Below are positions 51-17,239 of a DNA stretch of 17,239 nucleotides, piece after piece. The notes below the pieces were generated by a model, which was not told the DNA's origin, searched no databases, and was given only the letters and a program-made list of their open reading frames with translations. Made by a program: the position numbers and the translations under genes. Position 1 is the stretch's first letter. Every line of letters starts with the position of its first letter. This DNA comes from Eubacterium sp. (GTDB taxonomy: Bacteria > Bacillota > Clostridia > Lachnospirales > Lachnospiraceae). Location: assembly GCA_017965495.1 (NCBI GenBank), contig JAGCPW010000088.1, positions 1 through 17,239 of the forward strand, read 5' to 3'.

Positions 51-56
51 TAAATT

Positions 57-83: not shown

Positions 84-125
84 TGCAAAACTAGATTAAT
101 AATAAAGATATCTACTTATTAAATG

Positions 126-134
126 TGTTATAAT
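126..134 (+). promoter_or_regulatory. Candidate extended -10 promoter element (TGtTATAAT) for the decarboxylase gene
   Basis: TGTTATAAT at 126-134 matches the TGnTATAAT consensus exactly. No good -35 is present. The ATG at 143 begins 9 nt after the last base of the hexamer, and no Shine-Dalgarno lies in between. Confidence 0.4.
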
Positions 135-142
135 AATTCAGT

Positions 143-1555: not shown

Positions 1556-1558
1556 ATT

Positions 1559-2146
1559 ATGGGCAAAATATTTTTTATTCTTGGAAAAAGCAGTAGTGGA
1601 AAAGACACTATTTTCCAAAAAATAAAAGAGAATAATGCACTTGATCTAAAGACAGTGGTGGGTTATACCACTAGGCCTATGAGAGAGAATGAGGTGGACG
1701 GAGAAGAGTACTTTTTCGTGGACCGAGATAGACTCGAGGAACTTCAAAACGACGGCAAAGTAATTGAGGTGAGACACTACAACACAGTGCACGGAGTTTG
1801 GAGTTATTTCACTGTGGATGATGGACAGATTGACCTAGAAGATACAGACTATTTGTACATTGGAACGCTTGAGTCTTACGAGCAGATGAGGGATTACTAC
1901 GGAGAAGATGCTATTGTTCCAATTTTCATAGAAGTGGAACAGGGCGAGAGACTTAAACGTGCTATACTTCGTGAGATCGAGCAGAGCGAGCCAAAGTATG
2001 AAGAATTATGTAGAAGATTTTTGGCGGACGAGAAGGACTTTAGAGAAGAAGAAATAGAGAGACTTGGAATTAAGAAAAAATATATGAATGAAGACTTGGA
2101 TGCTTGTGTAGAAGAGATAGTAAAAGATATCCAGGCTAATAAATAG
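1559..2146 (+). CDS. Guanylate kinase-like nucleotide kinase (non-canonical P-loop)
   Basis: 195-aa ORF. P-loop GKSSSGKDT and the Gmk-like motif YTTRPMRENEVDGEEYFFV. AAGGAA lies upstream of the ATG. It begins 4 nt after the previous stop. Confidence 0.65.
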   Translation: MGKIFFILGKSSSGKDTIFQKIKENNALDLKTVVGYTTRPMRENEVDGEEYFFVDRDRLEELQNDGKVIEVRHYNTVHGVWSYFTVDDGQIDLEDTDYLYIGTLESYEQMRDYYGEDAIVPIFIEVEQGERLKRAILREIEQSEPKYEELCRRFLADEKDFREEEIERLGIKKKYMNEDLDACVEEIVKDIQANK

Positions 2147-2185
2147 GAAGAAAACTAGGCGAAAGCCTAATAATATAAGTAAAAA

Positions 2186-3202: not shown

Positions 3203-4107
3203 TGATAGACGTAGTAGGAATTAGATTTAGAAATACAGGAAAGATTTACTATTTTAATCCTAAAAATATTGAGCTTAAAAAAGGCGACCACGTGATTGTG
3301 GAGACAGCAGTGGGCGTGGAATACGGCGAAGTGGCTTTGGAGAAAAGACAGGTGACAGACGATCAAGTTAAGAAGCCTGTTAAGGATATTATGAGAAAAG
3401 CCAACGAGAAGGACGACCAAAAGTATGCTCAAAACCAGGAAAAGGAAAAGAAAGCATACAAGACATGTAAAGAAAAGATTGCTAAGCATGGTCTTGAGAT
3501 GAAACTTATCAAGGTTGAATATACATTTGATGGAAAGAAGATTATGTTCTACTTTACAGCGGACGGTCGTGTAGACTTTAGAGAGCTAGTTAAGGATTTG
3601 GCTTCTGTATTTAGAACAAGAATAGAACTTCGACAAGTGGGTGTTCGTGATGAGGCAAAACTCATAGGTGGAATCGGAATGTGCGGAAGAGAATTATGCT
3701 GTAGTACATTCTTGCCATCATTTGCGCCGGTTACTATTAAGATGGCGAAAGAGCAAAACTTATCACTTAATCCAACTAAGATTTCTGGTATTTGTGGAAG
3801 ACTTATGTGCTGTTTGAAAAATGAGCAGGAGTCTTATGAATATTTGAATTCAAGCCTTCCAGATGTAGGTGAGAGAGTTAAGACATTCGATGGTTTTGAG
3901 GGAGAAGTGACAAGTGTCAATGTCCTTAAACAAGAAGTTAAGATTGTGGTGGAAGAGGACGAAGAAAGAGAAATCAAAACTTACAATGTAAGCGAGCTTA
4001 AGTTTAAGCCAAAGAAAAAGAAATTTGACTTGGCGGCTGAGGAACTTAAAGAACTTCAGGGATTAGAAGATAAAGACGATAACGTGGAAGAAGCCGACAA
4101 ACACTAA
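3202..4107 (+). CDS. ricT: PSP1-domain protein / stage 0 sporulation protein YaaT (RicT) homolog
   Basis: 301-aa ORF. The start overlaps the holB stop (TAATG). Contains FRELVKDLASVFRTRIELRQVG and the Cys cluster GMCGRELCC...GICGRLMCCL, which is characteristic of PSP1/YaaT. Confidence 0.85.
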   Translation: MIDVVGIRFRNTGKIYYFNPKNIELKKGDHVIVETAVGVEYGEVALEKRQVTDDQVKKPVKDIMRKANEKDDQKYAQNQEKEKKAYKTCKEKIAKHGLEMKLIKVEYTFDGKKIMFYFTADGRVDFRELVKDLASVFRTRIELRQVGVRDEAKLIGGIGMCGRELCCSTFLPSFAPVTIKMAKEQNLSLNPTKISGICGRLMCCLKNEQESYEYLNSSLPDVGERVKTFDGFEGEVTSVNVLKQEVKIVVEEDEEREIKTYNVSELKFKPKKKKFDLAAEELKELQGLEDKDDNVEEADKH

Positions 4108-4120
4108 GGGGCGACCTTTA

Positions 4121-4858
4121 ATGGAAATAAAGCTAAAAGAAAACGAAGAAATTTGCGACCTTGAGCGCAAAGGATATAAAGTAATCCAAGACAAAGAAAA
4201 ATTTTGTTTTGGGATGGATGCCGTGCTACTTTCTTCTTTTACTGAAGTAAAAGCGGAAGAGAGAGCGATTGATTTTGGAACAGGCACTGGAGTTATTCCG
4301 ATTTTGCTTGAGGCTAAGACTGAAGGTGAGAACTTTGTCGGTCTAGAGATTCAAAAAGAATCTGTGGATATGGCAAAGAGAAGCATCCAGATGAATGGGC
4401 TAGAAGATAAGATAGAGATAGTAGAAGGCGATATAAAAGAGGCATCTGAAATTTTTGGTAAAGACTCGTTTGATGTGGTAGTTACAAACCCACCATATAT
4501 GAGCGAGAACAATGGGATTGAAAATCCGGACGCGCCAAAGGCTATCGCTAGACACGAGATTAAGTGCACACTAGAAGATGTGATAAGAGAAGCTGCCGCA
4601 GTGTTAAAACCACAGGGCAGATTTTATATGGTTCATAGACCAAGAAGATTGGCTGATGCCATGGAACTTATGAGACAGTACAAGATTGAACCAAAGAGAA
4701 TAAGGATGGTTTATCCGTACAAGGACAAGCCAGCCAATATGGTTTTGATAGAGGGATCAAGAGGTGGCAAACCGATGATGAATATTGAAGAGCCGCTTAT
4801 AGTTTATTCAGAACCAAATGTTTATACACAGGAAATATTAGATATTTATAATAAGTAG
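4121..4858 (+). CDS. SAM-dependent tRNA (adenine-N6)-methyltransferase, YabB/TrmN6-like
   Basis: 245-aa ORF. SAM-binding DFGTGTG and the catalytic NPPY motif (VVTNPPYM). Its position between yaaT and rsmI matches B. subtilis yabB. Confidence 0.75.
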   Translation: MEIKLKENEEICDLERKGYKVIQDKEKFCFGMDAVLLSSFTEVKAEERAIDFGTGTGVIPILLEAKTEGENFVGLEIQKESVDMAKRSIQMNGLEDKIEIVEGDIKEASEIFGKDSFDVVVTNPPYMSENNGIENPDAPKAIARHEIKCTLEDVIREAAAVLKPQGRFYMVHRPRRLADAMELMRQYKIEPKRIRMVYPYKDKPANMVLIEGSRGGKPMMNIEEPLIVYSEPNVYTQEILDIYNK

Positions 4859-4867
4859 GAAGGCAGT

Positions 4868-5716
4868 ATGGCTGGAAAGTTGTATTTGTGTGCGACGCCT
4901 ATTGGAAACTTAGAGGATATGACATTTAGGGTGATTCGTACATTGAAAGAAGTAGATTTGATAGGCGCTGAAGATACTAGAAACAGTATCAAGCTTCTCA
5001 ATCATTTTGAGATTGAGACTCCTATGCAAAGCTATCATGAATTTAATAAATATGACAAAGCTAAAGAGTTAGTGCAGATGATGAAAGATGGCAAAAGTAT
5101 CGCGCTAATAACTGACGCTGGAACTCCTGGCATTTCAGATCCGGGAGAAGAGTTGGTAAAAGAGTGCCTTAAAAATGGTATTGAGGTTACTTCTTTGCCG
5201 GGGGCGAGTGCGTGCGTGACTGCGCTTTCTATGTCAGGGCTATCAAGCCAAAGATTTTGCTTTGAAGCGTTCTTGCCAAAGGATAAAAAGAAAAAAGAAA
5301 ATGTGCTAAAACAGTTACAAAATGAGACAAGAACGATTATAATATATGAAGCGCCTCATAGGCTTACAAAGACGCTAAAGGAACTTGAAGATGCGCTTGG
5401 AAACAGAAGAGTAAGTATAAACAGAGAGCTTACTAAAAAATATGAAGAATCATTTTTGACCACGCTAAAAGAGGCTAGAGAAAAGTACGAGGCAGAGGAG
5501 CCAAGAGGCGAGTTTGTCTTGGTGATTGAAGGCAAAGACCCAGAGGAACTAGACCAGGAAGAAAAACAGAGATGGGATGAAATGTCTTTGGAAGATCACA
5601 TGAAAATATACTTAGACCAAGGCCTCGACAAAAAGTCAGCCATGAAGAAAGTGGCAAAAGACAGAGGTGTGGCAAAGCGAGACATATATAACCAGTTAGT
5701 TCAGGAGGAAAAATGA
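4868..5716 (+). CDS. rsmI: 16S rRNA (cytidine1402-2'-O)-methyltransferase
   Basis: 282-aa ORF. Tetrapyrrole-methylase fold signatures: LYLCATPIGNLEDMT, AEDTR, SDAGTPGISDPG-like (TDAGTPGISDPG) and YEAPHR. Confidence 0.9.
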   Translation: MAGKLYLCATPIGNLEDMTFRVIRTLKEVDLIGAEDTRNSIKLLNHFEIETPMQSYHEFNKYDKAKELVQMMKDGKSIALITDAGTPGISDPGEELVKECLKNGIEVTSLPGASACVTALSMSGLSSQRFCFEAFLPKDKKKKENVLKQLQNETRTIIIYEAPHRLTKTLKELEDALGNRRVSINRELTKKYEESFLTTLKEAREKYEAEEPRGEFVLVIEGKDPEELDQEEKQRWDEMSLEDHMKIYLDQGLDKKSAMKKVAKDRGVAKRDIYNQLVQEEK

Positions 5717-8235
5717 AAGGTAAAATTCATTGGCCGTTAATTAAGAGAATACTTGGAACCCTACTTGTTTTGGCAGGGCTTGTTTTCTTACTTGTAAACT
5801 ATAAAGCGTGCTACAACGCACACAAGACTAGAGCATATGCAGATCCAAACCAAAAGTTAGTTAAGTTAAAGAGTAACAGTGTTATTAAGCAGAAGTTTTT
5901 AGGTCGTGATGGCGAGCTAAAGAAAATCGGAATCTGCATGGATAATATGGGTATGGAAAAAGCGACAGGTAGTGTGACAGTTACTATCTATCACAAAGGA
6001 AAAGAAATCTGTACGGATACCATTGAGGCAAACATTATTGAGACAAATAAGTTTGCTTGGTTTAGATTTTTAGATAGACCAGAGACAGAGGAAGATGAAG
6101 TATACACAGCAGTGTTTAAGTGTAACGACTTTAAAAATGCACAGGGCTTTGGCGTGTATGTTTCAAGTGTATTTAATCCATATGTTACAGAACCTGGAAC
6201 TATAGATGGAAAATCTACTCTTAAAACTGATAATGTAAGAATTAGAATGTCATTTATGAATTATGATATTGCATTGTTTATAAAGATGGCACTAATTCTA
6301 TTAATTGGAATAATTCTTATCTGGCTTCCATACGGAAGAATTCAAGAATTTATAAAGAAGAAAACAAACAAAGAAATTGATCTTCAAAAATGGATTTCAA
6401 GAGCATTCTTTGTTACAACACCACTTACAGCATACTTCATTATGGAACTTCTCTCGAAGCATACTATGTCATATGTGGAGGGCAAACTTCTAACTATTGA
6501 GGGATGGTATAACATGATGATTTATGCCATCATTTTGGCAGCGGCGTATGCTATCACTAACAGAACACAGTACGCGTCATTAATCACATGGTCGCTCACA
6601 TTAGTAGTTGGTTTGACTAACTATTATGTAACAGCATTTAGAGGAATTCCAATATTAGTTCAGGACATTATGTCTATTGGCACAGCTAAGAATGTGGCAG
6701 CAGGATATGTTTATGAATTTGATATGTGGGTACTTTGGGGCGTGGCGTTATTTGCGGCAGCCGCAGGTACGATGCTCGGTTTAAAACCATATAAGGGTGT
6801 TAGATTAAAACTTAGATTTATCCCAGTACTTATCGGTGTGGCTGGACTTATCTTTGGATATTGGTTCTTTGTTCAAACAGAGATTGTGGCAAAGAGCGGT
6901 ATTGAGGATAGTCAGTGGAAACCACAACTTACATATAGAAAGAATGGTACAGCGCTATCGTTCTTAACTTCTTGGAAGTATATAAAGACTGAAAAGCCAA
7001 AGGGATATTCAGTGGATAAGGTTAAGGAGTTAACCAAGAATTATAAATCTGACGTTACTTCAAAAGACAATGCAACCAAGAAAAAGATGCCAAACATCAT
7101 TGCTATTATGAATGAGTCTTTGGCGGACTTTACATACGACGGTGAGCTTAAGACTACTGAAGATTATATGCCATACTTAAGAGCGCTTAAGAAAGATGCA
7201 GTTAGGGGACAACTATTTGTATCGATCGAGGGTGCCAACACAGCAAACTCAGAGTTCGAGTTCTTAACAGGAAACAACATGGCATTCTTTGCTCCAAGAG
7301 CAGTGCCATACAACAACTTGCTAAGTGGAATCTTGCCTTCGATGACAAGAACACTCAAGATGCAAGGATACACAGGTAACAATTCATACCATCCATATAA
7401 GAGAGATGGTTGGAACAGACCTAATGTTTACTCATATCTTGGATTTGATAACTTCTATTCAGAAGAGCACTACAAAGATGCGAAGTACACAAGAAACTTT
7501 GTATCGGACGCTAGTGATATGAAGCAGATTATCAAAGATTATGAGGCTGAGAAAAAGAAGAGCAAAGCTCCTTACTATCAGTTTAACGTTACTGTTCAAA
7601 ACGACGGTGGTTATATAGGACAGCGAGGCAAAGTAGATGTAGATGTTAAGGTTACAACATCAGGACTAAGTACAGAAGAGAACAACCAGTACATGACATT
7701 GGTTAAGCAGTCTGACGATGCCTTCAAAGAATTAGTAGAACATTATAAGAAAGTGGATGACCCTACAGTTATCGTAATGTTTGGTGATCACCAGCCACCT
7801 CTAGTAGAGCAGTTCTACGAGACATTGTTTAAGAAGAAACAGTCTGAATTTACAACAGAGGATACAGCTAACTGGTATTCAACACCATATGTAATTTGGG
7901 CTAACTATGATATAGAAGAAAAAGAAAATGAGAATATGAGTTGTAACTATTTATCATCATATGTTCTTGATATGCTAGGTGCAGATGTCACTGGCTATAA
8001 CAAGTACTTGATGGACTTGAAGAAAAAACTTCCAGTGGTTACAGCACTATTCTACAAAGGCGACGATGGCAAGTTCTATGACATTGATCAGAAGTCAAAA
8101 TATTCGAAAGACTTGAATGATTATGCTATAATTCAGTACAACGAATTGTTTGATCAAAAGAACAGAGTGGATGATTTCTTCTTCTTGAAGGGTGGAGATT
8201 ATTACATCGAGCCAAAACAATTCTTTAATGAATAA
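5713..8235 (+). CDS. LTA synthase / sulfatase-family (alkaline-phosphatase superfamily) polytopic membrane protein with an N-terminal extension
   Basis: 840-aa ORF. AGGAGG at 5703-5708; the ATG overlaps the rsmI stop (ATGA). One N-terminal TM is followed by a soluble segment of about 150 aa, then a multi-TM block, then an extracytoplasmic sulfatase-like domain (NIIAIMNESLADF ... MFGDHQP). Confidence 0.75.
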   Translation: MKGKIHWPLIKRILGTLLVLAGLVFLLVNYKACYNAHKTRAYADPNQKLVKLKSNSVIKQKFLGRDGELKKIGICMDNMGMEKATGSVTVTIYHKGKEICTDTIEANIIETNKFAWFRFLDRPETEEDEVYTAVFKCNDFKNAQGFGVYVSSVFNPYVTEPGTIDGKSTLKTDNVRIRMSFMNYDIALFIKMALILLIGIILIWLPYGRIQEFIKKKTNKEIDLQKWISRAFFVTTPLTAYFIMELLSKHTMSYVEGKLLTIEGWYNMMIYAIILAAAYAITNRTQYASLITWSLTLVVGLTNYYVTAFRGIPILVQDIMSIGTAKNVAAGYVYEFDMWVLWGVALFAAAAGTMLGLKPYKGVRLKLRFIPVLIGVAGLIFGYWFFVQTEIVAKSGIEDSQWKPQLTYRKNGTALSFLTSWKYIKTEKPKGYSVDKVKELTKNYKSDVTSKDNATKKKMPNIIAIMNESLADFTYDGELKTTEDYMPYLRALKKDAVRGQLFVSIEGANTANSEFEFLTGNNMAFFAPRAVPYNNLLSGILPSMTRTLKMQGYTGNNSYHPYKRDGWNRPNVYSYLGFDNFYSEEHYKDAKYTRNFVSDASDMKQIIKDYEAEKKKSKAPYYQFNVTVQNDGGYIGQRGKVDVDVKVTTSGLSTEENNQYMTLVKQSDDAFKELVEHYKKVDDPTVIVMFGDHQPPLVEQFYETLFKKKQSEFTTEDTANWYSTPYVIWANYDIEEKENENMSCNYLSSYVLDMLGADVTGYNKYLMDLKKKLPVVTALFYKGDDGKFYDIDQKSKYSKDLNDYAIIQYNELFDQKNRVDDFFFLKGGDYYIEPKQFFNE

Positions 8236-8244
8236 AATAATATA

Positions 8245-8430
8245 AGCTGTAGTCACGACCATTTGGTCAGAGGAAAGTTCGGTGAGAATCCGACGCAGTC
8301 TATCCCTACTGTATTTGGGACGAACGGGAGAATGCTTCACAGGCACCTTAGTAGAGTGATCATAAGTCAGAGTGCTCAGACTATAGCCACATTAGTTCGT
8401 AGGCAAGACGAATTAGCACTAGACCTTTTA
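8245..8430 (+). promoter_or_regulatory. Cobalamin (B12) riboswitch-like aptamer (boundaries approximate)
   Basis: AGAGGAAAGTTCGGTGAGAATCCGACGCAGTCTATCCCTACTGTA (8270-8314) matches the conserved cobalamin-riboswitch core (GGGAA..GGTGnnAAnTCC..GC.G..CCC..ACTGTA). AAGTCAGAG (8365-8373) resembles a B12 box and GCCAC is at 8386-8390. It lies directly upstream of an ECF/DUF4430 operon. I could not fold it completely by eye. Confidence 0.7.
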
Positions 8431-8454
8431 TAGGTTTGGTTTGTTAATATATTA

Positions 8455-8486
8455 AAAAGTCTTGCGAAAGCAAGACTTTTAATTTT
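8455..8486 (+). terminator. Intrinsic terminator, the probable expression platform of the riboswitch
   Basis: Arms AAAAGTCTTGC (8455-8465) and GCAAGACTTTT (8470-8480) flank a GAAA loop and are followed by AATTTT. The terminator ends 21 nt before the ATG at 8507. A second copy of GCAAGAC at 8403-8409 could pair with GTCTTGC (8459-8465) as an antiterminator. Confidence 0.8.
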
Positions 8487-8506
8487 ACAAAACGGAGGAA
8501 GATAAC

Positions 8507-9574
8507 ATGAAGAAAATTATTAGTATGATTACCGCTATTGCACTAGCGCTTACTTTAGTTTTTGTGCCAGTAAATGCACAAGCGGCCACTGCCAAGAGTG
8601 CTTACATTACAGTGGAAAAATTAACTATTGGACAAGGACTCCTAGTTCAGCCTACAAAGGCTGAGATAAAAGATGGAGATACTCTCCAGACTGTTTTTGA
8701 GAAAGTAATGAAAGATGCTGGATATGAAACGGTGGTAGATACTCAATACGGATACTATCTAACAGGCATTAAGAATGCTGATTCAGGAAAGATTGATATT
8801 CCAAAAAAGATTTCAGATATGCCTGATTATGTGAGCAGTTATGAGTGGGAAGGTCAGACATTCTCTACTACATATGTAGCGCCATCTAATGAAAACAATG
8901 ATGGAAACTTAAGTGCTCCAGACTTAAACCAGTATGCGTACAATGCTATGTCAGGCTGGATGTTTATGGTAAACAATAAAGGCGCGGCAGAAGGCGCAGA
9001 TAAATTATTAGTAAATGACGGAGATGTCATTAGACTTCATTTCTCAGTTTTTGGCTGGGGCGATGATGTTGGAATTGGATTTAGTGATTCTAATTTGAAA
9101 CTTGCAAACAAGGACGAGTTAGTTAAAAAGATTGCAAATGTAAAAGATGATCAAACATTTATGAGCATAGCTGCTGCCAAGAAAGCATACGAAGACGGCG
9201 TGAAAGTACTTGAGAAATATGACGCTACAGATGCTGAAGTAGCAACTGCAGTTAGCGCTATTGCTAAGTACGAAAAGCCAGCAGAAGTAAAAGTGGCAAG
9301 AGCGTCTATTAAGAGCATCAAAAACATCAAAGGCAAAAAAGCAAAGATTACAGTTAAGAAGGTAACAGGTGCCACAGGATACGTATTCAAGTATTCAAAA
9401 TATAAGAGTTTTAAAAAAGCTTCAAAGAAGACTACAACTAAATTAACTATCAAAACTAAGAAGTTTAAGAAAAAACAAAAATGCTACGCCAAAGTTCAAG
9501 CATACAAAAAAGTGAACGGCATCAAACACTTTGGTAAGTGGAGCAAGGTTAAGAAAGTTAAAATTAAAAAATAA
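8507..9574 (+). CDS. Secreted DUF4430 (transcobalamin beta-domain-like) protein with a C-terminal Lys-rich Fn3-like domain
   Basis: 355-aa ORF. GGAGGAA RBS at 8494-8500. Type I signal peptide (..VNAQA|AT). DUF4430-type pattern: ITVEKL..IKDGDTL..VFEKV...SGWMFMVNN...LLVNDGDVIRLHF. The C-terminal ~95 aa (GKKAKITVKKVTGATGYVFKYS...YAKVQAYKKVNG...WSKVKKVKIKK) resemble the small Fn3-like module common in Clostridia. Confidence 0.6.
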   Translation: MKKIISMITAIALALTLVFVPVNAQAATAKSAYITVEKLTIGQGLLVQPTKAEIKDGDTLQTVFEKVMKDAGYETVVDTQYGYYLTGIKNADSGKIDIPKKISDMPDYVSSYEWEGQTFSTTYVAPSNENNDGNLSAPDLNQYAYNAMSGWMFMVNNKGAAEGADKLLVNDGDVIRLHFSVFGWGDDVGIGFSDSNLKLANKDELVKKIANVKDDQTFMSIAAAKKAYEDGVKVLEKYDATDAEVATAVSAIAKYEKPAEVKVARASIKSIKNIKGKKAKITVKKVTGATGYVFKYSKYKSFKKASKKTTTKLTIKTKKFKKKQKCYAKVQAYKKVNGIKHFGKWSKVKKVKIKK

Positions 9575-9583
9575 TAAGCAGTA

Positions 9584-10873
9584 ATGAAAAACAACATCAT
9601 TAAAAGATTATTTATAATATGTTTAGCGTTAACAGTAGTTCTTCCGGGGACTACTGTTAATGCTAATATTGTATTGTCGAAGAGTGAGACATCAAAATAC
9701 ATAAATGCAGTTGCTCAAAGACAATTAAGAGAAGTTAAAAATCCATCACATAGTTCGGCAGGGGGAGAGTGGACAGTGATGGGGCTTGCCAGAGCAGGCA
9801 AGATTACAAACAACTACAAAAACATTTACAAAAAGAACTTGAAAAAGACTTTGGATAATACAAATGGAGAGTTATCCAAGAATGCATTTACAGAATATTC
9901 CAGAACAGTAATCGCACTTACATCTATTGGCGAGAATCCATATAACTTCTATGGATACGATGTGATTAGTCCACTAGCAGAAGTGGACAATGTAATAAAG
10001 CAAGGAATGAATGGACTTGCTTACGCACTTATTGCACTAGAGTGTGGTGATTACGATAACGTTAGTCCAAGAGCTGGATATGATGGCAAAGTTGGCAACA
10101 TAGAAAAATATAAAAATTCGCTAGTTAGTTCAGCGCTACCAAATGGTGGCTGGGCACTTTTTGGAAAAAAGGCTGATGTAGATATGACAGCTATTGCTAT
10201 TCAGGCACTTGCTCCTTTTTATAAAGAGAGCAAAGTGAAAAAAGCGATAGACGAAGGGCTAGAGATAATATCCAAAAAACAAAAAGACACTGGCGGATTT
10301 GAAACAATGGGAAACGAAAACTGCGAGAGTTCATGCCAGGTGCTAACAGCAATGTCTTCGCTTAGAATTAGTGTTAAGGATAAAAGATTTGTCAAAAAGA
10401 ATCACACAGTTTTGGATTCGCTTATGAGCTATTACCACAATGGTTCGTTTAGGCATTTAAAAGGTGGAATGGCAAATCAGATGGCAACAGACCAAGCCCT
10501 ATACGCTTTGGTTGCATATAGAAATACGTTGGCAAATGACCCTCCACTTTTCAATATGAAAAAAGTGGCGATTAAGAAAAAGGCTAGAAAGCCTGCGTCA
10601 AAGAAAAATAAAACAAAATTTAAGAAATCAACAGTCGTTAAAAGCGATGATCAAATAAAGAAAGAAAAAGAAACAAAGAAAAGCAAAAAGAAAATAAGTA
10701 CTAATAAAAGCGAGCCTACTTCTGAAGTGAAAGCAGAAGAAACTACTAAACAAAATCAAAAAACTAAAGAAGATAAGGCTAGTCCTGTTTGGTTTTGGAT
10801 AGGATTGGCGGTAATAATGGCCGCAGGAATTGCGTTTACTATTTATAAAAAGGTAGGAAGAAAAGATGTTTAG
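9584..10873 (+). CDS. Surface-anchored prenyltransferase/squalene-oxidase-repeat-like (alpha/alpha-toroid) protein
   Basis: 429-aa ORF. Signal peptide (..TTVNA|N). Recurring toroid-repeat-like motifs AGGEW (aa 59-63), NGGW (187-190), TGGF (236-239) and NGSF (286-289). Lys-rich low-complexity linker at aa 325-400. C-terminal TM helix PVWFWIGLAVIMAAGIAFTIY followed by a basic tail. Confidence 0.6.
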   Translation: MKNNIIKRLFIICLALTVVLPGTTVNANIVLSKSETSKYINAVAQRQLREVKNPSHSSAGGEWTVMGLARAGKITNNYKNIYKKNLKKTLDNTNGELSKNAFTEYSRTVIALTSIGENPYNFYGYDVISPLAEVDNVIKQGMNGLAYALIALECGDYDNVSPRAGYDGKVGNIEKYKNSLVSSALPNGGWALFGKKADVDMTAIAIQALAPFYKESKVKKAIDEGLEIISKKQKDTGGFETMGNENCESSCQVLTAMSSLRISVKDKRFVKKNHTVLDSLMSYYHNGSFRHLKGGMANQMATDQALYALVAYRNTLANDPPLFNMKKVAIKKKARKPASKKNKTKFKKSTVVKSDDQIKKEKETKKSKKKISTNKSEPTSEVKAEETTKQNQKTKEDKASPVWFWIGLAVIMAAGIAFTIYKKVGRKDV

Positions 10874-11363
10874 AAACAATAGAGCAGCCAGAATAATTTT
10901 CCCACTTATCATCATTGCACTTTTAGTGGCAGTGATGGAGTTTGTGGACTTTAAAAAAGAAGAAAAGAAAGATGTCATTATTGGAAAGTGTAGTGTTTCA
11001 ATAGATTGTAAAACTGTGCTAAAAAATAGAGATACTTTGGAGATGGAACTAAGAGATAAAGTACCAAAAGATGGAGTTATCTTAAAAGAGACAAAAGTAG
11101 ATCTTCACAAGGGAGATACTGCATATGACATTCTATATAAAGTGACAAAAGATAAAAATATTTCTATGGAAAGTTCTGATACTGCAGGAAACAAGTATGT
11201 AAAAGGAATTGATAATTTCTACGAGTTTAGCTGTGGACCAGAATCGGGGTGGCTTTACCAGGTGAATGGCAAAAAACCTAACAAGAGTTCAAGTGAGTAT
11301 AAAGTAAAGAGAAACGATGTGATTGCATGGAAATTTACTTGCAAAAAGGGAGACGTGAAATAA
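10866..11363 (+). CDS. Membrane-anchored DUF4430 (transcobalamin beta-domain-like) protein
   Basis: 165-aa ORF overlapping the previous stop by 8 nt. N-terminal signal-anchor (RNNRAARIIFPLIIIALLVAVMEFV). Canonical DUF4430 pattern: SVSIDCKTVL..GVILKETKVDLHKGDTAYDIL...YVKGIDNFYEF..GPESGWLYQVNGKKPN..SSEYKVKRNDVIAWKFT. Confidence 0.7.
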   Translation: MFRNNRAARIIFPLIIIALLVAVMEFVDFKKEEKKDVIIGKCSVSIDCKTVLKNRDTLEMELRDKVPKDGVILKETKVDLHKGDTAYDILYKVTKDKNISMESSDTAGNKYVKGIDNFYEFSCGPESGWLYQVNGKKPNKSSSEYKVKRNDVIAWKFTCKKGDVK

Positions 11364-11367
11364 AACG

Positions 11368-12228
11368 ATGAAAGATGAGTTTGGGAGATTTCATCCCATA
11401 GCAAACTTAATATTTTTTATCGCGGTCATAGCATTCTCAACGTTTTGGATGCAGGCTGGAATGATAGCCGTGTCGTTTGTGTGCGCCACGGTTTATTATT
11501 TTATGCTCAAAAAAAGCGAGGGCATCAAATACTTTTTGACAGTTTGTGTGGCAATGCTTATTGCATCCATTGTAAATCCTCTATTTTCACACAGAGGAGA
11601 GACAATACTATTTAGACTTCCTACAGGAAATCCAGTGACGTTTGAGTCAATAATGTTTGGACTTTTGGCGGGCGTGATTTTGGGCGAAGTGCTTTTATGG
11701 TTTTCTATGTTTAACAATGTGATGGAGGACGACAAATGGACAGCTACTATAGGGAAAATTGCTCCAACCATTTCAATGATTATAACAATGGTGCTAAGGT
11801 TTGTTCCAAAATACACTAAATTCACAAAAAAGACTAGGGACATTCAAGTAGCCAATGGATTTGACAGTGGAAGAAAAATCAAAAATGGAATGCAAGTGTA
11901 TTCTATTACAGCCACATGGGCACTTGAGACATCCATAGACACTGCAGATTCTATGAAATCTAGAGGGTATGGAAAAACAAAGAGAACAAATTATCACAAT
12001 TATAAATTTGAGATAAGAGATTTGGTTTTTGTTTTGTGGGTGATAGCGCTTAGTGCACTTATTTTATACATGGCAAACGTAGATAAAATACACACATTCT
12101 TTTATCCAACGCTTAGGAATAAAGAATCAGTGATAGTTTTAGTGGCATATATCATTCTTTGCATAACACCAATATTAATTAACATATGGGAGACAATAAG
12201 ATGGCGTATATTGAGATCAAAGATTTAA
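11368..12228 (+). CDS. ecfT: ECF transporter transmembrane (T) component, CbiQ/EcfT family
   Basis: 286-aa polytopic ORF with the EcfT-type coupling-helix motif ...TADSMKSRGYG. It lies directly upstream of a double ABC ATPase and an S component. Confidence 0.75.
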   Translation: MKDEFGRFHPIANLIFFIAVIAFSTFWMQAGMIAVSFVCATVYYFMLKKSEGIKYFLTVCVAMLIASIVNPLFSHRGETILFRLPTGNPVTFESIMFGLLAGVILGEVLLWFSMFNNVMEDDKWTATIGKIAPTISMIITMVLRFVPKYTKFTKKTRDIQVANGFDSGRKIKNGMQVYSITATWALETSIDTADSMKSRGYGKTKRTNYHNYKFEIRDLVFVLWVIALSALILYMANVDKIHTFFYPTLRNKESVIVLVAYIILCITPILINIWETIRWRILRSKI

Positions 12229-13529
12229 AATTTAAATATCCACAAAGTGAAAGAGAGATTCTCTCCGGCATCAATTTAAGAGTTGAAAAAGGAGAGATTG
12301 TAGTAGTGTGCGGAAAAACAGGAAGTGGAAAGAGCACACTGCTTAGACTTTTGAAAAAAGAAATAGCTCCAGCGGGAGAAATGAGTGGAGAAATAAATTT
12401 TGACGCAGAAAAAATAGGATTTGTATTTCAAAATCCAGAGCATCAGATAGTGACAGACAAGGTGTATGGCGAACTTGCTTTTGCGCTTGAAAACGAGGGA
12501 GTGCCTACAGATGAGATTAAACTTCGAGTGGCAGAGATATCTGAATATTTTGGAATTACAGATTGGTATTTCAAAAAAGTAGATGAGCTTTCTGGTGGAC
12601 AAAAACAGATTTTAAATCTTGCATCAGCTATGGTGGCAAACCCGGAAGTATTAATATTGGATGAGCCAATTGCTATGCTAGATCCTATAGCAAAAGAATC
12701 TTTGCTTCACTTGCTTGGAAGAATCAACAGGGATTTTGAAACTACGATTATAATGGCAGAGCACGACGTTAAGAAAGTATCGTACTTAGCAGACAAGATT
12801 GTGGCAATAAAGGATGGAATGATCTCAGATGATGTAAGTGAATGGTTAAAGGAAGAAGTAATAGAGTCAAACTCAGAAGAGACAGAAAAGAATACATCAC
12901 TAGAGGGTAAGAATATTTGGTTTAGATATCATAAAAACGACCCAGATGTTTTGAGAGGGCTAAGTTTTAAAATAAGCGAGGGAGAAACATTTTGCATGTT
13001 AGGTGGTAACGGAACTGGAAAGACCACAGCATTACTCACCATAAGCAAAGTGTTAAAGTCCTACAGAGGAAAGGTAAAGACTGATAAAAAGATTGGATTA
13101 ATGCCTCAAGATGCTAAGCAATTGTTTTGCTGCGAGTCAGTGAGAGAAGAACTAGATAGCGTATACGAAGATGAAAAGAGCAAAAGTGAAATAATAAACA
13201 CCATGGGCTTGGAGCACTTACTAGAAATGCATCCTTACGATCTAAGTGGAGGAGAGCAGGAAAAATTAGGCATAGCAAAGGTGTTGTCAACTAATCCAGA
13301 TATCATTCTTCTGGATGAGCCTACAAAGGGATTAGATATTTTTCTCAAAAAAGATATAGCCCAATTGTTTGAAGGACTAAAGAAACAGGGAAAAACTATA
13401 GTAGTAGTTACACACGACATTGATTTTTGTAAGAGAGTGGCAGATAGATGTGGACTTTTTGCCCAGGGCGAGTTGATAGGAGTAAGTTCCACAAAGAAAT
13501 TCTTTAACAATATGAAGTTTTATAAGTAG
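12201..13529 (+). CDS. Fused ECF ATPase (EcfA-EcfA'-like tandem ABC domains)
   Basis: Domain 1: Walker A GKTGSGKST, Q-loop FQNP, signature LSGGQKQ, Walker B LILDEP, H-loop AEHD. Domain 2: GGNGTGKTT, LSGGEQEK, ILLDEPTKGLD, VTHD. I prefer the start at 12201 (MAYIEIKDL) because GGGAGA at 12188-12193 sits 7 nt upstream. The ORF track's ATG at 12186 has no RBS. Confidence 0.85.
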   Translation: MAYIEIKDLKFKYPQSEREILSGINLRVEKGEIVVVCGKTGSGKSTLLRLLKKEIAPAGEMSGEINFDAEKIGFVFQNPEHQIVTDKVYGELAFALENEGVPTDEIKLRVAEISEYFGITDWYFKKVDELSGGQKQILNLASAMVANPEVLILDEPIAMLDPIAKESLLHLLGRINRDFETTIIMAEHDVKKVSYLADKIVAIKDGMISDDVSEWLKEEVIESNSEETEKNTSLEGKNIWFRYHKNDPDVLRGLSFKISEGETFCMLGGNGTGKTTALLTISKVLKSYRGKVKTDKKIGLMPQDAKQLFCCESVREELDSVYEDEKSKSEIINTMGLEHLLEMHPYDLSGGEQEKLGIAKVLSTNPDIILLDEPTKGLDIFLKKDIAQLFEGLKKQGKTIVVVTHDIDFCKRVADRCGLFAQGELIGVSSTKKFFNNMKFYK

Positions 13530-13534
13530 GAAAG

Positions 13535-14197
13535 ATGAGAAGTTTTACAGGAAACGAACTAAATAGCATGTTTGGCGACAGACTGTATTTGATAGTGTCG
13601 GTGGCATTAATTGTACTAGCCATCGTAGTTTTCGTGCGCAGTTTTGAGAAAAAGAAGCCTGGCACAAAGGACGTGGTTATGCTTTCAGTAATGGTGAGTT
13701 TGGCTGTGGTGGGTAGACTTGTATTTTTTATGATTCCTCAGTTTAAACCGTGCGCAGCAATCATAATCATCACCGGAATAATGCTTGGAAAACAATCAGG
13801 TTTTTTGTGTGGAGTACTTACGGCATTCATCTCTGATTTGTTCTTTGGAATGGGACCTTGGACTGTTTGGCAGATGATAGCCTTTGGAATAATAGGTGTG
13901 TTATCAGCACTAATATTTAGCGAAGAGCGCATAGAAAAAATGGGAGACTTCGGCAAACTAATGCTTTGCATATATGGTTTTATCGTGACATTCTTTGTCT
14001 ACGGAATAATAATGGACACTGCTACAGTGTTTATGATAACGGACAAGCCAAAGGTAGCCACATTTGTAGCAACATACTCTGCCGGAATAGTGTTCAATAT
14101 GATTCACGGAATTTCGACATTTGTCTTCCTATATTTAATGGCAAATCCGCTCAGCAAAAAAATAAAAAGAGTTTTGATTAAATACAATAATAGATAG
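13535..14197 (+). CDS. ECF transporter substrate-specific (S) component, candidate cobalamin/corrinoid-specific (CbrT-like by context)
   Basis: 220-aa very hydrophobic ORF with 6-7 predicted TM helices and an AGGAAAG RBS. It is the last gene of the riboswitch-controlled ECF operon. Substrate assignment rests on context only. Confidence 0.65.
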   Translation: MRSFTGNELNSMFGDRLYLIVSVALIVLAIVVFVRSFEKKKPGTKDVVMLSVMVSLAVVGRLVFFMIPQFKPCAAIIIITGIMLGKQSGFLCGVLTAFISDLFFGMGPWTVWQMIAFGIIGVLSALIFSEERIEKMGDFGKLMLCIYGFIVTFFVYGIIMDTATVFMITDKPKVATFVATYSAGIVFNMIHGISTFVFLYLMANPLSKKIKRVLIKYNNR

Positions 14198-14341
14198 TCG
14201 ATTTGCGATATTTCTATAAACATAGAATGTTATACATTCCGCGTCCAAACACAAGGGCTTTATAATGGAAAAGCCTTTGTATATACGACTAATCTAAAGA
14301 GGGGAAGAGATAGGTTTTATATTAAAAGGCGGCAACCCAAT

Positions 14342-14376
14342 GCGGACCAAATATAAGTTTGGTCCGTTTTATTTTT
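14342..14376 (+). terminator. Rho-independent terminator closing the B12 operon transcript
   Basis: 9-bp stem CGGACCAAA (14343-14351) / TTTGGTCCG (14358-14366) with loop TATAAG, followed by TTTTATTTTT. Confidence 0.85.
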
Positions 14377-14387
14377 CCCCTAAAATA

Positions 14388-14396
14388 TGGTAAAAT
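14388..14396 (+). promoter_or_regulatory. Candidate extended -10 element (TGgTAAAAT) for the HPr-like/metG transcript
   Basis: TGGTAAAAT at 14388-14396 lies just after the terminator and 36 nt upstream of the ATG at 14432. There is no convincing -35. Confidence 0.35.
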
Positions 14397-14431
14397 TGTC
14401 TCTAGAAATACGCGTAATCAAGGAGGTTACT

Positions 14432-14695
14432 ATGGTACATAAAACTATTACTATTGATGTAGCAGAGGGAATAAAACTTCATGAAGCGGCTAATATTGCA
14501 AGAGAAATGGAAAATATGGACTGCACATGCGAGCTAATTTATGGCGATAAAAGACTTAATGCAAAAAGCCAGATTAGTATTATTTCTGCTGGCATCAAAA
14601 AAGGTGCAGAAGTAACTTTTGAGTGCGACGGTGATGATGAAGAAAAAGCCCTAGCTAAGCTTGTAGAGATGGCTAGCGAGGGATTTAAAGCATAA
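14432..14695 (+). CDS. HPr-family (Crh-like) protein with Lys in place of the catalytic His15
   Basis: 87 aa from the ATG at 14432, which is preceded by AAGGAGG (14420-14426). The ORF-track start at 14387 has no RBS. The sequence aligns without gaps to B. subtilis HPr as I recall it: G13-I14 are conserved, His15 becomes Lys, Arg17 becomes His, and K45-S46 (the HprK site) are conserved. Confidence 0.75.
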   Translation: MVHKTITIDVAEGIKLHEAANIAREMENMDCTCELIYGDKRLNAKSQISIISAGIKKGAEVTFECDGDDEEKALAKLVEMASEGFKA

Positions 14696-14720
14696 AAAAT
14701 AGGAGAGACAGGAGACAATA

Positions 14721-16292
14721 ATGAGCAAACCATTTTATTTGACAACAGCTATAGCGTACACATCTGGAAAGCCTCACATTGGTAATACCTATGAGGCTAT
14801 TTTAGCGGACGCTATTGTTAGATTTAAAAGAGAACAGGGATATGACGTGAGATTCCAGACTGGAACTGACGAGCACGGACAAAAGGTGGAAGAGAAAGCT
14901 GCAGAGCAGGGAGTTACACCTAAAGAATTTGTGGATGAAGTTTCAGGCGAGATTAAGAGAATCTGGGACTTAATGGGAACAAGTTACGACAGATTTATCA
15001 GAACTACTGACGAAGATCACGAAAAACAGGTTCAAAAAATATTTAAGAAATTATATGACCAGGGAGACATTTACAAAGACTCTTACGAGGGACTTTACTG
15101 TACTCCTTGTGAATCATTCTGGACAGAAGCACAGCTTAAGGACGGCAAATGCCCTGACTGTGGTAGAGATGTTAAGCCAGCCAAAGAAGAAGCTTACTTC
15201 TTTAGAATGAGTAAATATGCAGATAGACTAATCGAGCACATAAACACTCATCCAGAGTTTATCCAACCTGAATCTAGAAAGAACGAGATGATGAACAACT
15301 TCCTTCTTCCAGGACTTCAGGATTTGTGCGTGTCTAGATCATCATTCAAGTGGGGAGTGCCTGTGGACTTTGACCCAGAGCACGTAATCTACGTTTGGAT
15401 AGATGCACTTTCAAACTATATTACTGGATTGGGATATGACGCAGACGGAAACCACGATGAATTATACAAAAAATATTGGCCAGCAGATATACATTTGATT
15501 GGAAAGGATATTTTGAGATTCCATACTATTTATTGGCCAACATTATTAATGGCGCTAGATATTCCTTTGCCTAAGCAAATTTTCGGACATCCATGGTTAC
15601 TACAGGATGGCGGAAAGATGAGTAAGTCTAAAGGAAACACTATCTATGCTGATGACTTGGCTAAGTACTTTGGCGTGGATGCGGTTAGATATTTCGTTCT
15701 TCACGAGATGCCATTTGAAAATGATGGAAACATCACTTGGGATTTGATGCTAGAGAGAATGAATTCTGATCTTGCAAACACACTTGGAAACTTGGTAAAT
15801 AGAACTATATCTATGTCAAACAAATATTTTGACGGAGTGGTTGCTGATAAGGGTGCAGCAGAAGATGTGGACGCAGAATTAAAGCAGACTATATTGGACG
15901 CAGCCAAAGAAGCTAACGCGAAGATTGATGAGCTAAGAGTAGCTGATGCACTAAGCGCAGTAATGTCAATTTTTAAGCGTCTAAACAAATATATTGATGA
16001 GACAGAGCCTTGGGTTTTGGCAAAAGAAGAGGAGAAGGCAGACAGACTTTCAACTGTTCTTTACAACCTTATTGAGGGAATCAATATTGGTGCAAGTTTG
16101 CTTAAACCATTTATGCCTGAGACATCAGAAAAGATTTTAGCTCAGATTAATGCAGACTTTAGGAACTTCGACAATATGGAAGAGTTTGGTCTTTACGAGT
16201 CAGGCAAGAAGGTTACTGATGAGCCAGAAATCTTGTTTGCAAGAATGAAGATGGATGAGCTTATTGAGAAGGTGGAAGCAGACGCTGAGTAA
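14721..16292 (+). CDS. metG: Methionine--tRNA ligase, short form without the C-terminal tRNA-binding appendage
   Basis: 523-aa ORF. HIGN motif (KPHIGNTYE), KMSKS motif (GGKMSKSKGN) and zinc knuckle CTPCE...CPDCG. It ends shortly after the anticodon-binding helical domain. GGAGA RBS; the gap to the HPr-like gene is only 25 nt. Confidence 0.9.
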   Translation: MSKPFYLTTAIAYTSGKPHIGNTYEAILADAIVRFKREQGYDVRFQTGTDEHGQKVEEKAAEQGVTPKEFVDEVSGEIKRIWDLMGTSYDRFIRTTDEDHEKQVQKIFKKLYDQGDIYKDSYEGLYCTPCESFWTEAQLKDGKCPDCGRDVKPAKEEAYFFRMSKYADRLIEHINTHPEFIQPESRKNEMMNNFLLPGLQDLCVSRSSFKWGVPVDFDPEHVIYVWIDALSNYITGLGYDADGNHDELYKKYWPADIHLIGKDILRFHTIYWPTLLMALDIPLPKQIFGHPWLLQDGGKMSKSKGNTIYADDLAKYFGVDAVRYFVLHEMPFENDGNITWDLMLERMNSDLANTLGNLVNRTISMSNKYFDGVVADKGAAEDVDAELKQTILDAAKEANAKIDELRVADALSAVMSIFKRLNKYIDETEPWVLAKEEEKADRLSTVLYNLIEGINIGASLLKPFMPETSEKILAQINADFRNFDNMEEFGLYESGKKVTDEPEILFARMKMDELIEKVEADAE

Positions 16293-16313
16293 AACTGGCG
16301 ACTAGGAGAAAAT

Positions 16314-17081
16314 ATGATTTTTGATACACACGCTCATTTTGACGATGAGAGATTCAACGAAGATAGAGACGAATTGCTCGGCTCCATGAGAAATCATGGA
16401 GTCGAGTTTATAGTGAATATAGGTTCGGAAATGGATACGTGCCACGATACACTGGATCTAATAAAGAAGTACGATTTTATGTACGGCACACTAGGCATTC
16501 ATCCAGACTGCGTTTATGATTTGACAGATGACGATTATCAGTGGATAGAGGCTCATATAAATGACGACAAGATAGTGGCAGTGGGCGAGATAGGACTAGA
16601 TTATTACCGCGAGTACGACAAAGATGTTCAAAAGAATGCGTTCATTCGCCAAATGGACATTGCTAGAAGAAATAATAAGCCAATAGTAGTACACAGCCGT
16701 GATGCTGCGCAAGATACCTATGAGATTATGAAAGAAAACCATGCCGAAGAATTGGGAGGCGTAGTACACTGTTTCTCATATTCCACAGAGATGGCTGAGA
16801 AGTTTATGGATATGGGATTTTATATCGGAATAGGTGGAGTAGTTACATTTAAAAACTCCAAGAAATTACAGGAAGTGGCAAAAGCTATGCCAATTGAAAG
16901 GTTAGTTCTAGAAACTGACTGTCCATACCTTGCGCCAGACCCACATAGAGGCGAGAGAAATGATTCCACATACATAAGTTATGTGGCAGACAAAATAGCA
17001 GAGCTTAGAGGCATGAGTACAGAAGAACTAATCAAGACTACCACAGAGAATGCCAAGAGAATGTATAGAATAGAGGAATAA
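16314..17081 (+). CDS. tatD: TatD-family metal-dependent hydrolase (YabD-like)
   Basis: 255-aa ORF. Contains FDTHAH, GEIGLDY, VHSRDA, VHCFS and LETDCPYL, the typical TatD metal-ligand motifs. AGGAGA RBS. Confidence 0.9.
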   Translation: MIFDTHAHFDDERFNEDRDELLGSMRNHGVEFIVNIGSEMDTCHDTLDLIKKYDFMYGTLGIHPDCVYDLTDDDYQWIEAHINDDKIVAVGEIGLDYYREYDKDVQKNAFIRQMDIARRNNKPIVVHSRDAAQDTYEIMKENHAEELGGVVHCFSYSTEMAEKFMDMGFYIGIGGVVTFKNSKKLQEVAKAMPIERLVLETDCPYLAPDPHRGERNDSTYISYVADKIAELRGMSTEELIKTTTENAKRMYRIEE

Positions 17082-17083
17082 TT

Positions 17084-17239
17084 ATGGCATATCTTGCATC
17101 TCTAAGAGAGACAAAAGCAATAATAGATAGTTATTCATTCAATTTCCAAAAGAAGTTTGGACAAAACTTTTTGGTGGATTCAAATGTGCTTGAAAACATA
17201 ATTGAAAAAGCTGGAATAACTGAAGATGACTTGGTGCTA
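17084..17239 (+). CDS. rsmA: 16S rRNA (adenine1518/1519-N6)-dimethyltransferase, N-terminal 52 codons (runs off-window)
   Basis: The ATG at 17084 follows GAGGAA (17073-17078). Translation is MAYLASLRETKAIIDSYSFNFQKKFGQNFLVDSNVLENII..., with the KsgA/RsmA signature KKFGQNFL. Synteny with metG and tatD supports the call. Confidence 0.85.
   Translation, partial: MAYLASLRETKAIIDSYSFNFQKKFGQNFLVDSNVLENIIEKAGITEDDLVL

Follow-up and report, generated by a model that had tools for sequence, protein, structure and literature searches.

What does a six-gene operon of a gut Eubacterium take up, and what controls it? The operon lies on contig JAGCPW010000088.1 of Eubacterium sp. (Lachnospiraceae; GenBank assembly GCA_017965495.1), of which positions 1 to 17,239 of the forward strand were analysed as one stretch of 17,239 nucleotides, hereafter the window. 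It spans window positions 8246-14376, with a leader followed by six tightly packed open reading frames (ORFs) on the + strand that are separated by gaps of 9, 4 and 5 nt or overlap by 8 and 43 nt. We consider it probable, at roughly 70%, that the operon is a corrinoid (vitamin B12) scavenging and import system, which B12 represses by way of a reduced cobalamin riboswitch. The gene content and domain families were established directly, as were the topology signals, the homology and structure of the leader, the conservation of the cluster and its association with B12 riboswitches. A preliminary description of the locus had named six tightly packed or overlapping genes closed by one terminator, three extracytoplasmic proteins (two DUF4430 proteins and one toroid protein), and an energy-coupling factor (ECF) transporter composed of EcfT, a fused EcfA-A' and an S component. 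The first point was borne out by the ORF coordinates and a terminator scan (Table 1), the second by Pfam, AlphaFold2 (AF2) models, topology and hhalign, and the third by a profile of ORF4, ATPase models of ORF5 and Pfam families of ORF6, which all agree.

ORF4 had no match in Pfam. As a single sequence it found EcfT only weakly (4HZU_T at E 0.006); a profile of 28 orthologues matched EcfT over the whole length (5D3M_D, E 3e-15; 4HZU_T, 1e-11). ORF5 contains two complete ABC domains: PF00005 matched twice (E 5e-51), the ECF ATPase models TIGR04520 and TIGR04521 matched at 2e-85 and 2e-80, and the translation shows two Walker A motifs and LSGG signatures. ORF6 scored above the cut-offs of two S-component families, PF07155 and PF12822. 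Among solved structures, its sole clear relative was 6FNP_A (E 3e-9, 40 bits), the next S component standing at E 0.26. Since the other chains of 6FNP are common to other ECF entries, its unique 182-residue 'membrane protein' must be CbrT. ECF-CbrT imports cobalamin and cobinamide, and hemin is no competitor (Santos et al. 2018, PMC5997447). With EcfT, two EcfA-type domains and an S component in adjacent or overlapping genes, the locus shows the dedicated (group I-like) ECF organisation. In Lactobacillus delbrueckii, cbrT itself lies in an nrdJ-cbrS-cbrT-pduO cluster, and CbrS is not described in the paper (PMC5997447).

The second gene product, ORF2, had no Pfam match of its own, PF01122 (Cobalamin_bind) included; its relatives carry Prenyltrans or SQHop_cyclase Pfam domains, and its own name at NCBI is 'terpene cyclase/mutase family protein'. 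The protein consists of a signal peptide or signal helix, an alpha/alpha toroid (residues ~33-320), a disordered stalk of ~75 residues rich in K, T, E and S, and a C-terminal transmembrane (TM) segment at ~403-423; the AF2 model has a pLDDT of 84, with a core above 95. When the model was compared with the PDB by Foldseek, transcobalamin came first (7QBE_C, 4.4e-4; also 2V3N, 2BB6 and 8IXU) and intrinsic factor close to it (3KQ4, 2PMV). These matches had E-values of 4e-4 to 8e-3 and TM-scores of ~0.43-0.46; scattered among them were prenyltransferase beta subunits and class II terpene cyclases. Fusions of a toroid and a DUF4430 domain occur naturally in both orders: two relatives (P0062 and P0064) run from the toroid through a TM-like linker to DUF4430, and a third (P0086), whose cluster holds 4576 member sequences, runs from DUF4430 through the toroid to a dockerin domain. 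Other relatives of ORF2 are fused to SLH or dockerin domains.

A match of the ORF2 family to the squalene-hopene cyclase profile (1e-8) and the NCBI name could also mean that ORF2 is an extracellular enzyme of the terpene-cyclase/prenyltransferase superfamily acting on a lipid or wall component, with B12 an incidental neighbour. The acid motif of squalene-hopene cyclase is DxDDTA, and ORF2 retains DVDMTA at that position. We give such an enzyme a very slight chance, because export and tethering place the protein outside the cell, its catalytic motif is incomplete, the gene invariably adjoins DUF4430 and ECF genes or is fused to DUF4430, and the best structural matches are transcobalamin and intrinsic factor. 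A class II terpene cyclase in particular was rejected on the incomplete DxDD(TA) motif, the signal peptide, the external stalk and the TM anchor. Over 65 relatives, D200 and T202 of the DVDMTA segment (residues 198-203, window 10175-10192) are invariant and D198 nearly so; the protein, probably not a cyclase, has retained a central acidic pair.

The toroid is accompanied by two DUF4430/SLBB proteins. ORF3 matched Pfam PF14478 (DUF4430) with 62.5 bits (E 5e-17), has one N-terminal hydrophobic segment (residues 4-31), and its family alignment shows an SGW.Y.VN motif. ORF1 reached 27.6 bits for DUF4430 against a cut-off of 23.8 and is laid out as a signal peptide, an extended DUF4430/SLBB domain (~30-190), a three-helix segment (203-253) and an FN3 domain (263-355). 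hhalign joined it to the ORF3 family with a probability of 98.9% (E 2e-17) and an insertion; the two are homologous. The AF2 model of ORF1 has a pLDDT of 90.6 and its FN3 fold was matched by Foldseek, in which the FN3 domain swamped the matches and the SLBB domain was not matched by fold. DUF4430 is the C-terminal (beta) domain of transcobalamins (PMC4350170, PMC1796856), and a beta domain of this family was found in both ORF3 and ORF1. Because DUF4430 is the transcobalamin beta domain, ORF2 and ORF3 together appear to hold the domain content of one transcobalamin over two chains. The sequence of ORF1 contains neither an LPXTG motif nor a TM anchor, only the N-terminal signal-like segment; with no anchor motif, it is predicted to be secreted and possibly wall-associated.

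Both DUF4430 proteins have further peculiarities. In ORF3 and its relatives, C42, C48 and C159 are nearly invariant and a Cys is frequent in an EF.CG motif, making four conserved cysteines; these are unusual for an extracytoplasmic protein of a strict anaerobe, and could form disulfides or, by analogy with BtuM, supply a cobalt ligand. The FN3 domain of ORF1 (window 9293-9571) has 35 Lys and Arg, no Asp or Glu, and an isoelectric point of 10.7, which suggests electrostatic retention on anionic wall polymers. The gene just upstream, in conserved synteny, encodes a membrane protein of the sulfatase family, similar in architecture to lipoteichoic acid synthases.

Employing the ORF2 alignment, we scanned species-representative genomes, found 518 related places and kept 80 loci, in which upstream riboswitches were sought by Rfam scans (30 loci) and then with an nhmmer seed made from those matches (80 loci). 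As shown by tblastn, the gene order toroid-DUF4430-EcfT-EcfAA'-S is present in most of the 80 loci, across Clostridia and Paenibacillus. Of the 30 loci, 14 had a cobalamin riboswitch at Rfam level that was upstream and on the same strand; with nhmmer, a cobalamin-riboswitch-like element was found upstream of the toroid gene, also on the same strand, in 41 of 80, both Paenibacillaceae loci included. The neighbourhood survey that the preliminary description had proposed thus revealed a widely conserved cluster, often behind bona fide B12 riboswitches. Locus L050 has three cobalamin riboswitches (5049-5205, 6696-6879 and 13294-13480) and L067 a divergent pair (5672-5847 on the - strand, 6538-6722 on the + strand); these suggest larger B12 regulon islands around the toroid/DUF4430/ECF cluster.

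In the window itself, an Rfam scan at gathering thresholds returned no riboswitch. The riboswitch identity of the leader comes from orthology and covariation, not from a significant Rfam match in the window. Like members of Rfam clan CL00101, the leader has a GGTG..AA..CC hairpin, a CCC..ACTG hairpin, an AAGTCAG box, closure by P1 and a 3' hairpin with a GGCAA loop. It differs from orthologues of the RF00174 type, which carry a GCCACGG..GGAAGGCGC peripheral extension that it lacks, and from the RF01482-type leader of locus L090, which has neither the P2 nor the P6 stub that it retains. Judged from these comparisons, the window leader is a derivative of the cobalamin-riboswitch clan, intermediate between two recognised models of one clan.

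Leaders of the Eubacterium/Lachnospiraceae subgroup, in which the operon starts with an ORF1-like gene, fall in two alignable types. The canonical type (L005, L006, L008, L009, L010, L014, L016, L018) scored 63 bits (L005) and 60.9 bits (L009) with RF00174 where it was Rfam-scanned; the window type is also found in L001-L004. Both have the GGTGAGAATCC hairpin, the CAGTCT.TC.CTACTGT hairpin, GGGACGAAC, TAGTAG, AAGTCAG and the downstream TTCGTA.GCAAG.CGAA hairpin, and a small hairpin takes the place of the GCCACGG extension in the window type. GGAAAG, GGTGAGAATCC, CCCTACTGT and AAGTCAG were invariant among the compared leaders, with GGGAA altered to AGGAAA. The element of L090 (1272-1410) passes RF01482 'AdoCbl' with 55.5 bits against a gathering score of 50, and its siblings reach 26-35 bits with RF01482 or 27-30 bits with RF00174. 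Membership of clan CL00101 follows by orthology: elements that pass clan thresholds (L005, L009, L090) occupy the same position of the same operon, and the core is alignable. Over L083-L091, L081-L082 and L001-L004, the leaders show a stepwise reduction from the RF00174 type with extension to the minimal RF01482 type of L090; P2 and the P6 extension were lost independently in different lineages, and the P6 stub varies.

Eleven further loci with a window-type leader were added, and the nine distinct leaders among them, that of the window and those of L001-L004 made up the 14 compared; a metagenome pattern scan gave 2 loci only. Leader helices were defined by hand and then tested for pairing against slid controls. 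The P1 duplex (or a continuous P1 and P3 duplex) formed in 14 of 14 leaders at -9.4 to -14.6 kcal/mol, compared to -4 to -6 in shuffled controls, and over these leaders it is built from at least 7 different sequences. Another 39 pairs were 96.5% kept, against 33-46% in the slid controls, and 5 pairs showed compensatory changes. RNAalifold, given an alignment in which the two leader types were mixed, found no helices beyond P4, P13 and an incorrect P5. The minimum free energy (MFE) fold of the window leader contains P1, P2, P4, P13, the spacer hairpin and the terminator, with a z-score of -4.4.

Downstream of the aptamer, the leader has the parts of a switch. P13 has its counterpart in the RF01482 model, a 3' hairpin whose loop is GGcAA, and includes GCAAGAC, the complement of the 5' half of the terminator stem. 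The terminator core is GTCTTGC-GAAA-GCAAGAC (8459-8476), its 3' half identical to the GCAAGAC of P13, and GTCTTGC at 8459-8465 is the switching segment, able to pair with the P13 hairpin or inside the terminator. For a transcript lacking the 3' half of the terminator, the predicted fold is an antiterminator, GGCAAGAC:GUCUUGC, with P13 disrupted; the MFE fold of the full-length transcript has the terminator and P13 at -31.6 kcal/mol, compared to -23.3 with the antiterminator forced. Across the 14 leaders the terminator stem is conserved, with a compensatory A-U to G-C pair, and the spacer hairpin has 96% of cells paired and one compensatory pair. In L008 the 5' half of the terminator is still GTCTTGC, though GCCCTGC would pair better with its own partner, as expected if the segment must serve two partners. 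Four canonical-type leaders (L005, L009, L014, L018) have no terminator and place the ribosome-binding site (RBS) directly after P13, so that one aptamer lineage uses translational and transcriptional platforms. In solved cobalamin riboswitches, ligand binding fixes P13 via a loop-loop contact with L5. Inspection of the leader sequences by eye gave no defined L5-L13 contact; by analogy, P13 is presumed to be the kissing-loop partner of L5.

Several findings weigh against a B12-repressed corrinoid importer, the first of them in the leader. In a local search with RF00174 (Cobalamin), the window reached 16.7 bits at 8233-8392 (gathering score 31.5; local E 0.02-0.04), and it is below both clan thresholds, RF00174 and RF01482; AGGAAA replaces GGGAA and the B12 box is shortened. 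The preliminary description had seen a cobalamin-riboswitch core followed by a terminator, and had held that the lack of a significant cobalamin-model hit would refute it. The terminator is present and the core stands as a clan derivative; the Rfam score formally fails, and solely the comparative evidence rescues the riboswitch. Moreover, the close relatives L007, L012, L013, L015, L017 and L019 have the same operon without any riboswitch, so B12 control is common but not universal; as read from their sequences, it was lost or never gained in these Eubacterium lineages. Their ORF1 homologues are preceded by spacers of ~80-170 nt, several with a sigma-70-like promoter.

The sub-threshold score, the progressive loss of P2 and the P6 extension among relatives, and these six operons without the element would all fit a corrinoid importer behind a decayed, B12-blind leader, that is, a constitutive or otherwise-controlled attenuator on its way to the riboswitch-free state of the sister species. 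We regard this as unlikely. The leader outconserves the adjacent proteins: in L004, ORF1 is only 57% identical, yet the leader core is nearly invariant. Its substitutions are compensatory, the alternative pairing of P13 and terminator is preserved, and the most reduced form, that of L090, is above the RF01482 threshold.

Other points of this kind concern the proteins and the ligand. Sequence and profile searches against the PDB with ORF1, ORF2 and ORF3 gave no link to transcobalamin, and neither DUF4430 family matched a solved transcobalamin by sequence; the best transcobalamin beta domain was 5NO0, at a non-significant E of 0.54. The top Foldseek E-values of the ORF2 toroid are modest (~4e-4 to 1e-3), and the sequence profile of its family is nearer squalene-hopene cyclase than transcobalamin. 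Finally, the only experimental work on a homologous five-gene operon assigns heme as the substrate. The operon lsa1836-1840 of L. sakei encodes an S component, EcfAA', EcfT, and transcobalamin-beta-like and transcobalamin-alpha-like proteins; its deletion impairs heme accumulation, the defect is complemented in trans, and models corresponding to the alpha and beta domains of transcobalamin were built for the two extracellular proteins (Verplaetse et al., bioRxiv 10.1101/864751). That the same machinery imports heme or another tetrapyrrole here instead of corrinoids, as concluded for Lsa1836-1840, nevertheless seems quite improbable. The leader is of cobalamin-riboswitch descent, and such a riboswitch precedes about half of the related loci; the S component is closest to CbrT, with whose B12 transport hemin does not compete; and no heme-related gene was found in the window by a Pfam family scan and gene census.

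Based on homology, genomic context and RNA structure, we infer the ligand, the pairing of ORF2 with ORF3, the sequence of steps in the relay, the kissing loop and the effect on regulation. A B12-repressed corrinoid importer would work as follows. When corrinoid is scarce, the unliganded leader would pair the GCAAGAC of the P13 region with GTCTTGC, forming the antiterminator and allowing read-through. With a loaded aptamer, P13 would be held, presumably by the L5 kissing loop, and GTCTTGC would close the terminator at 8454-8486. The products would be three extracytoplasmic proteins and one ECF transporter. ORF2, on its long stalk, and ORF3, on its short anchor, would act as the two-chain equivalent of a transcobalamin, clamping the corrinoid at the membrane, while ORF1, with the second SLBB domain and the polycationic FN3 domain, would intercept corrinoid farther from the membrane, in the wall or in the medium. 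The ligand would be handed to the CbrT-like S component and imported by EcfT-EcfAA' with ATP.

A bolder version, which we put forward tentatively and at somewhat less than even odds, is that ORF2 and ORF3 make up a transcobalamin of two chains tethered to the membrane and that ORF1 is a 'corrinophore', either bound to the wall or released; the three would form an obligatory extracellular relay for an ECF class thought to need no binding protein. The cluster would then represent the bacterial ancestor form of the animal B12 carriers, and in a natural series its leaders would grade from riboswitches of class I (RF00174-type) down to minimal ones of the RF01482 type, the window being an intermediate of possibly altered corrinoid selectivity.

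Table 1. Features of the operon and its leader in the window (positions from the first nucleotide of the window; all on the + strand).
Feature	Positions	Strand	Description	Basis
Promoter-like site	8104..8132	+	TCGAAA-17-TATAAT with TG, in 3' end of upstream gene	consensus scan
Cobalamin-riboswitch aptamer, reduced	8246..8387	+		orthology, covariation; sub-threshold RF00174
P1	8246-8254/8379-8387	+	closing helix of the aptamer	
P2 hairpin	8257-8268	+		
P3	8270-8272/8375-8377	+	GAG/CTC; GAAAG junction within aptamer	
P4	8279-8293	+		
P5 with loop L5	8295-8312	+		
P6	8326-8348	+	short	
B12-box-like element	8364-8374	+	AAGTCAGAGTG	
P13 hairpin	8396..8412	+	TTCGT-AGGCAAG-ACGAA	stem invariant in both leader types
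Spacer hairpin	8418..8440	+	ACTAGACC...GGTTTGGT, 8 pairs, between P13 and terminator	terminator scan
Leader intrinsic terminator	8454..8486	+	AAAAAGTCTTGC-GAAA-GCAAGACTTTTAATTTT	sequence and MFE fold
RBS of ORF1	8494-8501	+	GGAGGAAG	sequence
ORF1	8507..9574	+	355 aa; DUF4430/SLBB, three-helix segment, FN3	
ORF2	9584..10873	+	429 aa; alpha/alpha toroid, stalk, C-terminal TM	
Hairpin in ORF2	9623..9666	+	20 bp, in signal-peptide coding part, ~50 nt past ORF1 stop	terminator-like scan
ORF3	10866..11363	+	165 aa; N-terminal membrane anchor, DUF4430/SLBB	
ORF4	11368..12228	+	286 aa; EcfT (T component)	
ORF5	12186..13529	+	447 aa; fused EcfA-EcfA' ATPase	
ORF6	13535..14197	+	220 aa; ECF S component, probably of CbrT (cobalamin) type	
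Closing intrinsic terminator	14342..14376	+	11-bp stem, 5 G-C pairs, then TTTTATTTTT	terminator scan and sequence

A second RNA structure lies inside the operon. The near-perfect hairpin at the start of ORF2 has a free energy of -30.6 kcal/mol and a z-score of -6.75. It is kept in 10 relatives, with 98.9% of cells paired and every change preserving pairing, and the more distant L087 has a hairpin of different sequence (-26.9 kcal/mol) in the same place. From its position and conservation, it may act as a partial terminator or mRNA stabiliser that raises the output of ORF1 relative to ORF2-6. Upstream of the aptamer, the promoter-like site is a weak candidate, since such sites showed no enrichment over shuffles in the consensus scan; it is a possible start of the leader transcript, with read-through from the upstream gene as the alternative.

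The operon is flanked by the sulfatase-family membrane protein gene (5713-8235) upstream and an HPr-like gene (14387-14695) downstream. The wider array comprises genes for a decarboxylase, a kinase, holB, PSP1, a methyltransferase and a TP_methylase-family protein, the last probably rsmI, before the operon, and metG and tatD after it. Together with the sulfatase-family gene, the operon lies between the TP_methylase-family gene and the HPr-like gene, metG and tatD (window 4868-8235 and 14387-17081), and the two look as if they had been inserted into a housekeeping array that is conserved in Firmicutes. The ORF1 homologue of L011 is immediately preceded by a gene whose end closely matches the C-terminus of the TP_methylase-family protein, so that in this locus the TP_methylase-family gene directly abuts the ORF1 homologue. 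The window opens with the 3' part of a tRNA gene (positions 1-50; RF00005, 29.5 bits), cut by the window start. A protein of 'MAG: Eubacterium sp.' matches ORF2 with 100% identity, and the nearest genome loci belong to metagenome-assembled genomes of Lachnospira and Eubacterium, some obtained from samples of sheep and reindeer.

According to the 2022 paper on BtuH of Bacteroides (PMC8941943), little is understood of the ways in which Gram-positive gut bacteria compete for B12. A literature search, which covered few subscription-journal papers, found no paper showing B12 binding by Gram-positive surface proteins such as these. The cluster is common, with the 518 places related to ORF2, strongly tied to B12 riboswitches, and apparently made up of the two domains that also compose human transcobalamin and intrinsic factor. 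If its products bind corrinoids and feed the ECF transporter, it would be the Firmicutes counterpart of BtuG/BtuH, would test the 2007 proposal, described below, that animals acquired their B12 carriers from such bacteria, and would resolve the disagreement with the heme role assigned in L. sakei. The orthologous leader set offers a natural experiment on the paring down of a large riboswitch. Specialists are unlikely to be surprised; the locus is a clean, testable entry to B12 capture in Firmicutes and to the heme-versus-B12 question.

The concept itself is not new. Burroughs, Balaji, Iyer and Aravind defined the SLBB superfamily in 2007 and described a transcobalamin-like clade, mostly secreted or anchored, in Gram-positive bacteria (PMC1796856). 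Members of that clade are frequently fused to an alpha/alpha toroid, which may come before or after the SLBB domain; their operons often contain a further SLBB paralogue, and the genes are encoded with a CbiO-like ATPase and a CbiQ-like membrane protein in organisms without B12 synthesis. The authors proposed B12 scavenging by such SLBB and toroid proteins and a bacterial origin of the animal carriers (PMC1796856). The window shares with these systems the anchored or secreted SLBB protein, the toroid partner, the second paralogous SLBB protein, and the ECF-type ATPase and T component. The 2007 prediction was purely computational and used no riboswitch evidence. In the window, by contrast, toroid and SLBB are on separate, oppositely anchored chains, and a polycationic FN3 domain on an extra SLBB protein, a CbrT-like S component and a reduced riboswitch are added.

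The homologous operon of L. sakei has been partly studied. By gene description, Lsa1836-1840 has the same five components as the window, export signals on both surface proteins and a single transcription unit. It differs in having five genes without the third, SLBB-FN3 protein, in its assignment to heme, and in that no B12 riboswitch was reported. The present locus and its clade are distinguished by a toroid and an SLBB domain split over two oppositely anchored chains, an additional SLBB-FN3 protein, a reduced riboswitch intermediate between two models and the conserved 20-bp hairpin in ORF2.

For the transporter, the nearest known system is ECF-CbrT of Lactobacillus delbrueckii (6FNP), which provides the closest solved relative of the ORF6 S component and whose EcfT is the best match of the ORF4 profile. 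ECF-CbrT uses a shared (group II) module and no extracellular protein, whereas the window encodes a dedicated module with fused ATPases and three co-transcribed surface proteins.

For the surface proteins, the preliminary description had drawn an analogy to BtuG/BtuH of Bacteroides or the Isd heme relay. Neither BtuG/BtuH nor Isd (NEAT) was recovered as a family of ORF1-3 in Pfam or NCBIfam, and the folds found were SLBB, FN3 and toroid. The BtuG and BtuH lipoproteins (PMC6143338, PMC8941943) embody the same idea, B12-controlled accessory proteins on the surface before a B12 transporter; with unrelated folds and the TonB-dependent BtuB as transporter, they are an analogy only. The closest relatives are instead the two domains of animal transcobalamin and intrinsic factor. 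In these carriers and in haptocorrin, an alpha6/alpha6 toroid and a DUF4430 beta domain clamp one cobalamin (PMC1796856, PMC4350170). The animal carriers are single soluble chains, whereas in the window the two domains are split over ORF2 and ORF3 and separately anchored.

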